This document shows, piece by piece, positions 28,433 through 32,220 of a DNA stretch of 64,000 nucleotides; position 1 is the stretch's first letter; every line of letters begins with the position of its first letter. The notes beneath the pieces are model-generated. The model made no database searches. It was given only the letters and a program-made list of their open reading frames with translations, and was not told where the DNA came from. Made by a program: the position numbers and the translations under genes. The DNA comes from Escherichia coli (GTDB taxonomy: Bacteria; Pseudomonadota; Gammaproteobacteria; Enterobacterales; Enterobacteriaceae), in NCBI RefSeq assembly GCF_003334305.1, contig NZ_QOWS01000008.1; one strand, written 5' to 3'.

Positions 28433-28440
28433 GGATGATG

Positions 28441-28470
28441 CCCGGTTGAAGTGCAACCGGGCTATTTGGA
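28441..28470. terminator. Hairpin downstream of glpD, between glpD and the convergent unknown operon
   Basis: CCCGGTTGAAGTGCAACCGGG followed by CTATTTGG. Could serve both convergent units. Confidence 0.4.
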
Positions 28471-28483
28471 TTCCTTAGACTAT

Positions 28484-29089
28484 TCATTGTAAATAATTGA
28501 ATAACGGCCCCTGAGCTAAAATCGCCAAACTTAAGCACGTTACCCAATCGCCCCACTTCTTCCTCTGGTTTCTATTTTTTCTGCACCAATGGCAATAATA
28601 TCCCCATGCAAAACCAAGCTGTGCACTAATCGGGCCGACAAAATCAGTCCAAGGCTGCGGCCAAAAAGGGGAAAAATTCAGGGGAGGCCAGACAAACGTC
28701 AGAAAGAAATTTCGGATATTTTCCAGCAACGCTGATTTCTCTGGAGAAATATAAAGAATGAAATTCGAGAGAATTAACCAGAAATAGACCGGCGAAAAGA
28801 CCAGCCAGCAATGCAGTCTGTTTTTTAATTCAGGAGGCGTTCTGCGGGAGAATTGCCAACCGATGCCAGCCATTACACTGAAAAAAAGTGCATATTCAAC
28901 CATTAACTCAAGTTGTAATTCCTGAAGAGAAATACGCACAACCAGGAGCGGAAAGGAGAATATTATTTCTGCCAGAAAAGTTAACGTGAATATAAGTACG
29001 GCTAAGACAATAACCGTCGGCCATACCAATAATGGCACGATAACAAAACCGAGAATTACAGGGGGAATATAAAGCCGGAATTTAATCAT
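28484..29089 (-). CDS. Hypothetical small polytopic membrane protein (201 aa), last gene of the unknown four-gene operon
   Basis: ATG start; 201-aa ORF MIKFRLYIPPVILGFVIVPLLVWPTVIVLAVLIF... with about 4-5 hydrophobic spans and a basic C-terminal segment (WCRKNRNQRKKW). The start lies 2 nt after the stop of the upstream gene. I do not recognise a family. Confidence 0.55.
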   Translation of the reverse strand: MIKFRLYIPPVILGFVIVPLLVWPTVIVLAVLIFTLTFLAEIIFSFPLLVVRISLQELQLELMVEYALFFSVMAGIGWQFSRRTPPELKNRLHCWLVFSPVYFWLILSNFILYISPEKSALLENIRNFFLTFVWPPLNFSPFWPQPWTDFVGPISAQLGFAWGYYCHWCRKNRNQRKKWGDWVTCLSLAILAQGPLFNYLQ

Positions 29090-29091
29090 TT

Positions 29092-29859
29092 TTATTTTCC
29101 TGGTGATTCGGATGATGCGTCATACATCGCGCATAAACACTCATCAATTATCCAGTCATCTTCCCAGACCTGATATTCTGTCATTGGTTCGGGCTGTTTT
29201 AGCGGATTCTCAATCGCTTGCCGCGCTCTTTCTTTCAGTAAAGGATGATTATTTCTAGCCCAGGCATTGATTTGGGTGGTAATGACGTTATCGATATCGT
29301 CCTGGTTATCTCTGATATAATCCTCACAATATCTGTTCAATAAACAGGCAAGAGAAACGGTCGACCAAAAGCCGGGAACTGAATTAATGGCATCCAGCAA
29401 TGGCGCAAGAGCGATATCGGCACGGAAAAACATTTCCAGCATATACTGTAATTCGACAGCTTCATCGCCGGATACCCAATCAGTCATATACTGGCAGGCA
29501 AATCGCTGTAAAATTGCCCGTTCATCCGCACGCCAGTTTTCTTTACTGGCAAGGTTTATACGCCGTAGAGAAAAAACTACGTGAATATTGTCAAAATGCC
29601 CCTGTGCAACAAATTCCAGTAAACGCGGCAGAAAATAGCGGACCTCATCGCTATTTTGCGGATCAGGCCCTGGGCTACTATTCCAGGCATTGATTAAGGA
29701 ATACGGGATCGCTCGTAACGATGTACTCCGTAATGCCTTTTGTTCCTGCTGACTCAGGCAATATTCACAACAAACCACAAATTTCTGCGGCACCTGATAA
29801 CGACGAAAGGTGTGATAAATCTGCTCAATTAATGCCTGCATGGCGGGGCTGGGTTGCAT
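29092..29859 (-). CDS. Hypothetical soluble acidic protein (255 aa), third gene of the unknown operon
   Basis: ATG start; MQPSPAMQALIEQIYHTFRRYQVPQKFVVCCEYCLSQQEQ... with Cys motifs (CCEYC, DECLC). Its stop is 2 nt from the next start. No recognisable family. Confidence 0.55.
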   Translation of the reverse strand: MQPSPAMQALIEQIYHTFRRYQVPQKFVVCCEYCLSQQEQKALRSTSLRAIPYSLINAWNSSPGPDPQNSDEVRYFLPRLLEFVAQGHFDNIHVVFSLRRINLASKENWRADERAILQRFACQYMTDWVSGDEAVELQYMLEMFFRADIALAPLLDAINSVPGFWSTVSLACLLNRYCEDYIRDNQDDIDNVITTQINAWARNNHPLLKERARQAIENPLKQPEPMTEYQVWEDDWIIDECLCAMYDASSESPGK

Positions 29860-29861
29860 AG

Positions 29862-30572
29862 TTACCCCCTCGCCCGCTGATCGCGTGTAAACGGTTGATA
29901 GACAAAACGAGCATTCGCCGCGTTCAGGCGAATAAGGGCGCTACGCGAAAGGGAAAAGCTGGGGCGAATGCAACTATTGCAGTCTCGACAGCTTTCCTCT
30001 GCGCAATTTTCCACTGAGTAATGACGCGTGTAGAGTTTCAGTTCGGCCTGCTTATCGCGAAATCCGCGTAAACTGTTATTGTTATGAAATTTCCAGGCAT
30101 CTTTAAAGACCTGAAAGATATAGACATCCTCAATCCAGGAGTCACATTTTTTAAGCGGGCGCTTTGCTATTATCACCCGCTCATCCGGATTTAGCATCGC
30201 CGTAAATTGTACGGTGACGTCATTTGTCGTGTTCAGGTCACATTGAACATCTGGTACATCACTGATATAGGGGTCAAATCCAAAATCAGCACCACAGGCA
30301 CAAAGACGGCTAATGGTGGCGGTATCGAGGGAAAATCCCGGCCATACCTTGCTGGACGTTAAGCCAATATTTAATGTGACATTATATCGAAGCAATCCCT
30401 CAAGACCGTCAGCACCGACGAACTTTTCCCCTTCATCCAGGGCCTGGTTAATGAGTTGCTGAACAATGCCTTCATCCCAGTATGCCGATTTGCAGTTGGC
30501 AATCGTAATATCCACGCCTGTGAAGGGATCAGTACCGGCAAGGCTTGCAAATAATGTATTAACTAATTCCAT
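29862..30572 (-). CDS. Hypothetical soluble protein (236 aa) with a C-terminal Cys cluster, second gene of the unknown operon
   Basis: ATG start; MELVNTLFASLAGTDPFTGVDITIANCKSAYWDEG... with the C-terminal motif ENCAEESCRDCNSC (C-x4-C-x2-C-x2-C). 15-nt spacer after the upstream gene. No recognisable family. Confidence 0.55.
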   Translation of the reverse strand: MELVNTLFASLAGTDPFTGVDITIANCKSAYWDEGIVQQLINQALDEGEKFVGADGLEGLLRYNVTLNIGLTSSKVWPGFSLDTATISRLCACGADFGFDPYISDVPDVQCDLNTTNDVTVQFTAMLNPDERVIIAKRPLKKCDSWIEDVYIFQVFKDAWKFHNNNSLRGFRDKQAELKLYTRHYSVENCAEESCRDCNSCIRPSFSLSRSALIRLNAANARFVYQPFTRDQRARG

Positions 30573-30587
30573 TTTTATTATCCAGCT

Positions 30588-32105
30588 TTAAGGTAGCGTC
30601 TTATACATCGGGACATAACCTACATCTTCCACCAAACTCTGTCCCTGCGGCGTTAAAAACCACTCCAACAATTTTTGTGTCTCTGACGTCGTATTTTCCC
30701 GCGTTACCATAAAGGCATCGACGATATAGGGATATTTGCCGTTGCGAATGTTTTCGGCAGTCGGTGCAATACCGTTAATCGCTAGCAGTTTTATATTTTT
30801 ATCGTCGTTCATTTGTGTTGCGTAATAACGGAAGGTGTAACCTATTGCGTTGTTTGTATTACGGTATTCGGCAACGACTTTAATCATTCCCTCCATCATA
30901 CTTGCCACTTCTGTTTCCTGCGGCGAGATCATGCGGACATTTTTCATGACCTGGGATTGCATCACCGTCTGGCTACCAGAGTCTTCCGGGCGTTGCCAGG
31001 TCTGGATCTCCTGATCGTTACCGCCAACCGTGCGCCAGTTGGTAATTGCACCACTGAAGATGTCACGCACTTGTTGTTCGGTCAGGGAATTAACCGGGTT
31101 ATCTGCATTGACGATGAAAACAAACGCTTCACGGGCAAAAGGCGTGTAAATCAAAGTGACGCCCGATTCCTCCGCGCGTTTTTTCTGCCCACCGGAAGGT
31201 TGAGCCACAAAGATAATATCGGCATTACCTTTAACAATCTTGTTATATGCTTCGGGAGTACGAGAGTTCGCCAGATATTCCCATTCGTGAAAATCTTCCG
31301 GCAAAACGCTTAGTGCATAAAAGGCAGAGGCATAAATGGGGTACGCCGCCGTTGCGCCATCAAGTCGCGGCCAGTTTTGCGTGAACTGAATTTGCGGTTT
31401 ACCACGCAGTGGTGTCAGTTGATTATTGAGTTTATCGGGTCGCCAGGCCCAGGTATCAATATTTTCACGCACACCGACGCCGGGATTAAGCTGTTTATAT
31501 AAATAAGCCTGGTAACCGGCGACAAAACCAAGCATGAGAAGGATAAACAAGAGAGAATTACGGCAACGTAACCCGGACGTGCCCGTTAAAGGATATCTGG
31601 TCGGCCAGCCGTACCCCAGCGAAAAACTGATATGCGCGCCAACAGGTATAATGACTAACCACCAGTACTCACCACCGACTAATGAGGCTAACAAAACGCC
31701 CAGCCAGGGGAGCATAAGATCAGCCAACCAACCCGCTCCCATCTGGCGAAATTGATAATCTGCCAGATGCAGCGCGATTATCCAGACCCCCAGGGTTAAT
31801 AATGCGGGTACTAAAAAAAGACATTGTCGCCAGACGGCTATTTCTCTTTTTTCTGGTGCACTATCGTCCGCCCACACTCGCCCCGAGAAAAATAGCATTA
31901 ATGCGCCCAGCGCCAGCATAAAAATGTTGAGCAGAAGGTAAATTGTTGGCGTGATAAAGATATTACAAACTTCAATAATACCGGCAAGTCCGACACCCAG
32001 CATGGCAATAACCGCCGCCAAAAACTGCGCCAGAATGGGGATGCCGAAAAAAGTCATTACCAGCGAGGTCAAAATCCATTTTCTGTTTTGCATTATTCTT
32101 TCCAT
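30588..32105 (-). CDS. Hypothetical fusion protein (505 aa): N-terminal polytopic membrane domain (~7 TM) plus C-terminal PstS/PBP-like-2 type substrate-binding domain
   Basis: N-terminal ~220 aa are strongly hydrophobic. The C-terminal ~280 aa carry motifs typical of phosphate-binding-protein-like domains (GATAAYPIYASAFYA; IFSGAITNWRTVGGNDQEIQTWQRPEDSGS; IGYTFRYY). A second ATG at 32093 has the better Shine-Dalgarno (GGAAAG) and may be the true start. Confidence 0.6.
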   Translation of the reverse strand: MERIMQNRKWILTSLVMTFFGIPILAQFLAAVIAMLGVGLAGIIEVCNIFITPTIYLLLNIFMLALGALMLFFSGRVWADDSAPEKREIAVWRQCLFLVPALLTLGVWIIALHLADYQFRQMGAGWLADLMLPWLGVLLASLVGGEYWWLVIIPVGAHISFSLGYGWPTRYPLTGTSGLRCRNSLLFILLMLGFVAGYQAYLYKQLNPGVGVRENIDTWAWRPDKLNNQLTPLRGKPQIQFTQNWPRLDGATAAYPIYASAFYALSVLPEDFHEWEYLANSRTPEAYNKIVKGNADIIFVAQPSGGQKKRAEESGVTLIYTPFAREAFVFIVNADNPVNSLTEQQVRDIFSGAITNWRTVGGNDQEIQTWQRPEDSGSQTVMQSQVMKNVRMISPQETEVASMMEGMIKVVAEYRNTNNAIGYTFRYYATQMNDDKNIKLLAINGIAPTAENIRNGKYPYIVDAFMVTRENTTSETQKLLEWFLTPQGQSLVEDVGYVPMYKTLP

Positions 32106-32177
32106 TCTTTCTGAATGGCGAAATTATACTCCCCGAGTCCCCTTGCCCCTTCTGGACACTTTTCCGAAATGATGGCG

Positions 32178-32204
32178 AAAAAAACGGGACCCTTTGGCCC
32201 CGTT
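32178..32204 (-). terminator. Intrinsic terminator of glgP
   Basis: Minus-strand sequence AACGGGGCCAAAGGGTCCCGTTTTTTTT (hairpin plus U-run) begins about 17 nt after the glgP stop. Confidence 0.65.
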
Positions 32205-32220
32205 CTATTTATTAGTGAAA

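Follow-up and report, generated by a model that had tools for sequence, protein, structure and literature searches.

The window analysed here is a stretch of 64,000 nucleotides (nt) of Escherichia coli DNA (contig NZ_QOWS01000008.1), and its element of interest is a group of four genes, named P1, P2, P3 and P4, which lies between glgP and glpD (Table 1). The 3.8-kb region of the chromosome that comprises these genes shows 100% identity to E. coli strain H15. The list of open reading frames (ORFs) and the raw sequence both give four minus-strand ORFs in the order P1-P2-P3-P4, of 505, 236, 255 and 201 amino acids (aa), separated by gaps of 15 nt (P1-P2), 2 nt (P2-P3) and 2 nt (P3-P4), exactly as stated in the first-pass annotation of the window. 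The ribosome-binding sites are purine-rich and sit within the preceding gene of the unit. No paralogues of P1-P4 were found elsewhere in the window.

On the glgP side, the strong terminator that had been proposed to precede the unit is indeed present. It folds with a free energy (dG) of -17.1 kcal/mol (z -4.17), none of 200 shuffled sequences (0/200) folding as stably, and it sets the unit apart from the glycogen operon. A perfect TATAAT, located just upstream of P1, is a candidate -10 element, and a consensus promoter scan returned only a weaker site that overlaps it. This TATAAT falls in the part of the locus that K-12 has kept with yzgL. At the other end, the hairpin which the first-pass annotation regarded as shared with glpD is real, but the T-run is found on the glpD strand only, with none on the minus strand. 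The G+C content is 41-49% across the P1-P4 region, compared with 50-58% in the flanks. The small intergenic gaps and the bounding terminators are consistent with co-transcription, and we consider the unit to be compact and probably co-transcribed.

Table 1 Features of the glgP/glpD junction in the window (positions are those of the whole stretch)
Feature	Position	Strand	Description or basis
P1, 505 aa	30588-32105	-	Polytopic membrane anchor fused to a predicted periplasmic PstS-like solute-binding domain
P1 N-terminal membrane region, aa 1 to ~205	31491-32105	-	About 5-7 predicted transmembrane helices, from hydropathy
P1 PBP_like_2 / PstS-like domain, aa ~246-500	30606-31370	-	Pfam, alignments to PstS in the PDB, motifs
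P2, 236 aa	29862-30572	-	Cytoplasmic, two domains; family confined to Enterobacteriaceae
P3, 255 aa	29092-29859	-	Cytoplasmic all-alpha solenoid (predicted), N-terminal C-x3-C, LPRLLE motif
P4, 201 aa	28484-29089	-	Small polytopic membrane protein
glgP intrinsic terminator	32181-32206	-	11-bp stem + U7
Candidate promoter -10, perfect TATAAT	32123-32128	-	17 nt 5' of the P1 ATG; no good -35
GC-rich hairpin between convergent glpD and P4	28440-28462	+	glpD terminator, T-run follows
Counterpart of K-12 yzgL (5' end of P1 and its upstream region)	31871-32219	-	Sequence match

With regard to the proteins, searches of P1-P4 against PADLOC, PHROGs, NCBIfam and Pfam recovered the PstS-like domain of P1 alone. 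Pfam PBP_like_2 (PF12849) matches P1 over aa 250-485 with an E value of 3.7e-30, and solved PstS chains from the PDB align to the C-terminal ~255 aa with an E value of ~1e-18, the P1 loop QRPEDSGSQ being aligned to the anion loop of solved PstS ('sredgSGT'). No signal peptide or lipobox was found in P1; the protein begins instead with a hydrophobic multi-helix N-terminus of ~205 aa. The hydrophobic N-terminus and the Pfam match bear out the earlier description of a polytopic protein with a phosphate-binding-protein-like periplasmic domain. As the paralogue of this domain in O157 strains has a lipoprotein signal, the domain of P1 is predicted to be located in the periplasm. The start given by the NCBI annotation pipeline (PGAP) for P1 is at 32093, which yields a protein of 502 aa.

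The NCBIfam model of the PstS family, TIGR02136, gives 122.7 bits on P1, for a cut-off of 206.6. Judging from these profile scores, the P1 domain is a member of the PstS superfamily and not a TIGR02136 equivalog. The P1 family keeps the R-x3-S-G-[ST] anion loop (R-x3-SGS) and a GAT loop near the start of the domain, while the remaining canonical PstS loops are replaced by RTPxAY and AQPS, a comparison made partly with the residues of E. coli PstS. The signature of the family reads DGATAAYPxYA, RTPxAY, DxIFVAQPS, QRPxDSGSQ, and GYTFRYYA. As the anion loop and the GAT loop are kept, even though the other PstS loops are replaced, the domain probably binds phosphate, a phosphate-like oxyanion or a phospho-compound.

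P1 resembles PstS proteins in its C-terminal ~255 aa, the anion loop included, and in a domain predicted to face the periplasm. It differs from them in being anchored by about 5-7 transmembrane (TM) helices, whereas PstS proteins are secreted or lipidated, in scoring below the TIGR02136 cut-off, in having two binding loops replaced and in lacking adjacent pstCAB-type genes, none of which lies beside P1 either in the window or among 80 related loci. ATP-binding cassette (ABC) importers of the OpuA or GlnPQ type have a substrate-binding domain fused to the permease. P1 shares with them a solute-binding domain covalently joined to a multi-helix membrane domain. In contrast to these importers, its membrane region is poorly conserved, matches no permease family in NCBIfam or Pfam, and is not accompanied by an ATPase gene. 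This region also has almost no invariant polar residues. The reading of P1 as an ABC permease fused to its solute-binding protein was rejected, as neither a permease nor an ATPase signature is present.

A word-index search returned 2,604 relatives of P1. The ~500-aa architecture is found in Salmonella, Klebsiella oxytoca, Intestinirhabdus, Phytobacter, Budviciaceae, Leminorella, and Leclercia. Across the relatives, identity is 49-72% in the periplasmic domain and 14-40% in the membrane region, and columns with at least 90% conservation make up 30% of the former versus 4% of the latter. Within Enterobacterales, the fast-evolving membrane region shows 18-40% identity. A species-level scan, with one genome per species, gave at least 578 loci with the motifs, of which 80 were kept. 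Among these 80 loci, the P1-family proteins of Bacillota have about 385 aa and ~3 TM helices, and those of Proteobacteria, Actinomycetota, Synergistota, and Campylobacterota have about 490-520 aa and 5-6 TM helices. The domain subfamily with 3-6 predicted TM helices is seen also in Betaproteobacteria. Clustering of the neighbouring ORFs revealed no conserved neighbour, since every neighbour family occurs in at most 8 of the 80 loci, enterobacterial glg/glp synteny aside; in the window, the neighbours of P1 are glgP and P2. P1 thus falls into a large PstS-like family whose proteins are tethered to the membrane and whose genes have no conserved neighbour, and we found no paper on this family in the literature.

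In Enterobacteriaceae, P1 is found at the glgP/glpD junction in at least seven genera (Escherichia, Salmonella, Klebsiella as K. oxytoca, Pseudocitrobacter, Phytobacter, Intestinirhabdus, and Superficieibacter). P2, P3 or P4 is present in only three of the 80 species-level P1 loci, which belong to Escherichia, Pseudocitrobacter, and Superficieibacter, the last as a remnant. Members of the P1 family also occur at other places. Salmonella enterica has a second paralogue of 498 aa, with 41% domain identity, between ruvC and ruvA (L020:7001-10094; comparison loci are designated by L numbers), near a Peptidase_C92 gene and a gene for a membrane protein of 230 aa that has no annotation. P1-family genes are arranged in tandem in a metagenome-assembled genome of Helicobacteraceae (four genes, L037:55-6891) and in Intestinirhabdus alba (two genes, L027:208-3382), which suggests that the family expands by local duplication.

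P2 has neither a signal peptide nor a TM segment. Its two halves each end in the motif PGFSL..I.RL...A.F..P[YF], with a repeat score of 55 compared with a mean of 24 +/- 4 for shuffled sequences, and the N-domain is modelled by AlphaFold2 (AF2) with a predicted local distance difference test (pLDDT) of 80-95. A PDB sequence search with P2 gave no match, and none of nine P2-family members matches Pfam. The first-pass annotation had pointed to Cys motifs in both P2 and P3. In P2, the cysteines clustered at aa 189-201 are probably not essential, as a 54%-identical homologue lacks them; in P3, C30 and C34 are conserved family-wide. The reading of P2 as an active deaminase was rejected, as it has no H/C-A-E or PCxxC motifs.

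Two known families were considered for P2. P2 resembles DUF4279 / FdL-Imm5 (PMC9424270; PMC13304343) in being a small cytoplasmic alpha/beta protein with two repeated units ending in ...L..L...A.F..P[YF], and the K. oxytoca orthologue of P2 has a precomputed 'faint' DUF4279 match. However, membership of DUF4279 (PF14106) is not established, as none of the nine P2-family members matches it at E ≤ 0.1. No polymorphic toxin of the Rhs, CDI, LXG or a related type is encoded next to P2 in the window or in loci L001-L018. The YbbD family (NF007301; PF26610 YbbD_head) came into consideration because some P2 alleles bear the PGAP name 'YbbD family protein' and because a true YbbD-type lipoprotein is encoded in third position in the units of Salmonella and K. 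oxytoca. P2 has no full-length match to NF007301 (the NCBIfam YbbD model, 181 positions), which covers only 43 aa of P2 at positions 6-48 with 22.6 bits, for a cut-off of 373, whereas the true YbbD-type (YbbD_head) lipoprotein of Salmonella (L016:9235-9657) matches positions 44-173. In addition, tblastn against the rhsD-ybbC-ylbH-ybbD region of K-12 finds no similarity to P2, and membership of the YbbD family was rejected. The NF007301 profile looks chimeric, which probably explains the PGAP label. The K-12 pseudogene ybbD itself (L015:5950-7131, in the rhsD region) immediately follows ylbH, an orphan Rhs C-terminal tip, and so takes a position that would be expected of an orphan immunity gene.

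P3 is predicted with a pLDDT of 85.5. Its close family is enterobacterial, and a homologue in Deinococcus shows 22% identity over 199 aa (tblastn, pairwise E 3e-13). A P3 profile searched against 1.84 billion representatives matched at least 2,584 clusters, defined at 50% identity, at E ≤ 1e-3, and 1,496 at E ≤ 1e-10. The members are mostly of 240-260 aa, and all the named ones are called 'hypothetical'. The conserved positions include Y15, F18, C30, C34, P78, R79, W109, E113, and W200. No Pfam match was obtained for 32 diverse members, and a PDB sequence search with P3 gave no match. The P3 family is large, has no name and extends over several phyla. For the distant P3-family genes, no conserved partner, toxin neighbour or adjacent paralogue was found, and P3 was not found in the phage and plasmid collections. 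One of these distant genes (L102:4595-6750) shares 4 nt with the end of a gene for an ankyrin/kelch-repeat protein of 469 aa and has unannotated genes of 258-299 aa around it, and none of these neighbours matches the P3 profile.

P4 has no match in Pfam, NCBIfam, PHROGs or PADLOC, and only chance matches to antibodies in the PDB. It is known from Escherichia and from a single 32%-identical copy outside this genus (locus L008, described below), no exhaustive profile search having been made. Kinship between P4 and the membrane region of P1 was rejected, the BLASTP E value being above 1. For P1-P4 as a whole, PADLOC-DB 2.0 gave no match at E ≤ 1, and signatures of toxins, transporters or defence systems were not found. 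With no PADLOC match, no literature, and P2-P4 outside every Pfam and NCBIfam family, the earlier statement that no characterised pathway includes any of P1-P4 still holds.

The distribution of the genes was surveyed in 5,426 complete E. coli genomes, presence being defined as at least 80% coverage of the stretch. The whole P1-P4 unit is carried by 2,431 of these genomes (45%), in agreement with the proposal that it is a variably retained module. Taken separately, P1 is present in 3,348 genomes (62%), P4 in 3,000 (55%), and P2 together with P3 in 2,278 (42%). The genes are chromosomal in every case. No P2, P3 or P4 was found on plasmids, apart from the matches in NZ_OL790696.1, a 4.8-Mb E. coli entry of PLSDB which is evidently a chromosome filed as a plasmid.

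Several arrangements occur at the glgP/glpD junction besides the P1-P2-P3-P4 order of the window. In O157:H7 and others, P1 (89% aa identity) is followed by a PstS-like lipoprotein, 57% identical to aa 224-505 of P1, which stands in place of P2-P3, and by P4', 69% identical to P4. In E. coli strain E11 (L003, NZ_CM143878.1), a chaperone-usher fimbrial operon at the glgP side (L003:7316-12203) replaces P1, of which the last 22 codons are left, and is followed by an intact P2-P3-P4. In L002, P1 and P4 are pseudogenes, P2 is deleted, and P3 is intact; internal stops or frameshifts are seen in this locus and in L005. P1 is alone in one E. coli (L023) and in Phytobacter (L026), Intestinirhabdus has two tandem P1 paralogues, L007 has P1-P2 with fragments of P3, and Pseudocitrobacter (L012/L025) has a 176-aa gene followed by P1-P2-P3. 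In Salmonella and K. oxytoca, P1 is followed by an orthologue of P2 (54-56% identity) and by a YbbD_head lipoprotein of 139-140 aa; the Salmonella unit shows a 9-nt gap and a 4-nt overlap, and P1 and P2 of K. oxytoca are separated by a 334-nt gap. Insertions of IS1B, which interrupt P1 in one E. coli strain (NZ_CP044443.1) and P4 in another (NZ_CP157110.1), are further inactivation routes for the unit.

K-12-like strains have only the pseudogene yzgL, a remnant of P1, at this junction, and the first-pass annotation had already named this pseudogene remnant. The same annotation took yzgL for the 3' end of the 505-aa gene, which proved incorrect: the sequence of K-12 corresponds to the 5' end of P1 and its upstream region (Table 1).

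Members of the cassette are also found away from the glgP/glpD junction. L008, a 3.2-kb contig, carries relatives of P2 (54% identity), P3 (49%), and P4 (32%) together behind an SF1-helicase/DUF2726-like gene, and no other P2-P3-P4 trio was found away from a P1 gene. This gene (L008:29-1243) encodes the C-terminal region of a superfamily 1 (SF1) helicase with a DUF2726-like end and bears a weak resemblance to the anti-phage helicases PLuB, ProA, and Hhe, which is the only link of P1-P4 to anti-phage defence. In another enterobacterium (L009-L011), two tandem P3 paralogues occur alone.

The glgP/glpD locus is already on record as O-island 133 (PMC2907692) and as the glp-glg 'Hotspot A' (PMC13185298). 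Both reports describe a region that differs from K-12, and neither gives it a function. The position on the chromosome and the P1 gene are the same as in the window, whereas the O-island 133 of O157 has the PstS-like lipoprotein instead of P2 and P3, and its P4 is divergent. For yzgL and the O157 locus tags, the literature yielded array tables only. A table of the CpxR regulon (PMC2731931) lists yzgL at -2.0.

Among alleles and orthologues, the ratio of nonsynonymous to synonymous substitution rates (dN/dS) is 0.07-0.46 for P1-P4 compared with 0.005-0.07 for the flanking genes. These dN/dS values indicate that P1-P4 are under purifying selection and are real genes. Between divergent E. coli alleles, dS is 0.26-0.83 for P1-P4 versus 0.05-0.19 in the flanks, and the identity between E. 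coli and Salmonella is 53% for P1 and 54% for P2, compared with 93% for glgP and 91% for glpD. Old divergent alleles combined with relaxed constraint are typical of genes in conflict or in frequent exchange, without being diagnostic of either.

Based on these results, we favour, with about even confidence, a composite locus, which comprises a resident gene for a membrane-tethered PstS-like protein, P1, and a separable, lineage-restricted P2-P3-P4 cassette. P1 would be the ancestral resident gene of the glgP/glpD junction in Enterobacteriaceae. In the inner membrane, its fast-evolving multi-helix N-terminus would tether the well-conserved PstS-like domain in the periplasm, and P1 would act as a tethered receptor or sensor rather than as the binding subunit of an ABC importer encoded next to it. 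P2-P3-P4 would have been added downstream of P1, would probably be read from the same promoter, and could be lost, swapped or moved independently of P1. The products of the cassette are two cytoplasmic proteins that do not look like enzymes, and one small membrane protein. As the cassette is hypervariable, low in G+C and devoid of enzymatic motifs, it might be a conflict- or immunity-type accessory cassette rather than a metabolic pathway, a role that we propose only tentatively. A resident P1 with interchangeable downstream genes is the simplest reading of the arrangements observed. The undescribed four-gene system put forward in the first-pass annotation is thus compact and uncharacterised, as claimed, but its reading as one coherent system is not supported, P1 and P2-P4 appearing separable.

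Several observations weigh against a composite locus. P2 lies directly 3' of P1 in four genera, with tiny gaps, which fits a functional P1-P2 partnership too, and P4 is kept with P1 in the O157 variant. The L008 contig, on which P2-P4 occur without an adjacent P1, is so short that a P1 homologue further upstream is possible. Of the canonical binding loops of PstS, half are changed in P1, and phosphate binding, as judged from these residues, is not assured. Finally, AF2 does not model the C-terminal half of P2 reliably.

The first of these observations are also those that speak for a single envelope system, in which P1 would sense or capture a periplasmic ligand, P4 would be its membrane partner, and P2 and P3 would be cytoplasmic effectors or adaptors, the other gene combinations being degenerate or alternative versions of the same machine. 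The adjacency of P1 and P2 in Escherichia, Salmonella, K. oxytoca, and Pseudocitrobacter, and the persistence of P4 with P1 in the O157 form, would then reflect a shared function, as would the short gaps (15, 2 and 2 nt), the ribosome-binding sites inside preceding genes, and the bounding of one unit by terminators. P1 and P2 also diverge at similar, unusually fast rates, as co-evolving partners might. Nevertheless, in most taxa no conserved gene accompanies members of the P1 family, P2-P4 are missing from 77 of the 80 species-level loci, and P1 is alone at the junction in Phytobacter and in one E. coli. Conversely, P2-P4 persist without P1 in L003 and without an adjacent P1 in L008, and L002 retains an intact P3 with P1 and P4 as pseudogenes and P2 deleted. 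The 334-nt gap between P1 and P2 in K. oxytoca and the unequal presence of the components in E. coli (62% for P1, 42% for P2+P3, 55% for P4) point in the same direction, and we regard a single system as possible but, on balance, doubtful.

It is unlikely that P2, P3, P4, and the YbbD-type lipoprotein are orphan immunity proteins directed against toxins of Rhs, contact-dependent inhibition (CDI) or type VI secretion (T6SS) systems, which would have accumulated 3' of a conserved membrane-protein gene. The cassette-like replacement between strains and species, the divergent alleles with their low G+C content, and the small size of the proteins, which lack enzymatic motifs and of which one is in the membrane, could all be explained in this way. 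So could the tandem P3 paralogues elsewhere (L009-L011), and the position of ybbD after the orphan Rhs tip ylbH in K-12 would be in keeping with the YbbD-family lipoprotein as third member of the Salmonella and Klebsiella units. However, no toxin or toxin fragment is present in the window or in loci L001-L018, and the distant P3-family members are single genes without toxin neighbours. The 'faint' match of the K. oxytoca P2 orthologue to DUF4279, described as an immunity family (PMC9424270, PMC13304343), is countered by the absence of such a match at E ≤ 0.1 in all nine P2-family members. P2 is not similar to the ybbD of K-12, and its 'YbbD family' label probably stems from an NCBIfam profile that looks chimeric. 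Moreover, there are only a handful of cassette types, versus the dozens typical of immunity islands.

A broader proposal, which we consider improbable, is that P1 represents a phylum-spanning class of stand-alone inner-membrane receptors that recruited fast-evolving partners in Enterobacteriaceae, namely P2-P4 or lipoproteins of the YbbD type or PstS-like type. Together, they would form a new envelope-surveillance or conflict system, which would be neither a transporter nor a catalogued defence or immunity system. Lastly, the remnant in K-12, the stops or frameshifts in L002 and L005, the IS1 insertions in P1 and P4, the deleted remnant in Superficieibacter and the P3 fragments in L007 could be seen as signs of a decaying unit with little present function, lost in many lineages by deletion, IS insertion or point mutation, but this is very unlikely given dN/dS values well below 1 for P1-P4, across genera too, intact reading frames in thousands of genomes and P1 domain motifs that are conserved across phyla.

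The existence of these genes and of the hotspot is not new, since thousands of genomes already carry annotations of the genes and the hotspot has been described in print, and the present results do not yet amount to a new mechanism or to a demonstrated new system. What is new is the modularity of the 'operon', with interchangeable cassettes behind a conserved gene at the glgP/glpD hotspot, the placement of P1 in a class of PstS-like proteins with a polytopic anchor, which is unstudied and spans phyla, and that of P3 in a large unnamed family. Should P1 prove to be a tethered receptor of the phosphate-like kind that works with no ABC transporter next to it, it would stand for a large unexamined branch of the solute-binding-protein superfamily, which is presently annotated everywhere as an ordinary PstS transporter subunit. 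The P3 family, with at least 2,500 sequence clusters in several phyla, is still without a Pfam model or a name. For E. coli genomics, the comparison clarifies the origin of K-12 yzgL and the source of the 'YbbD family' label on P2 alleles.

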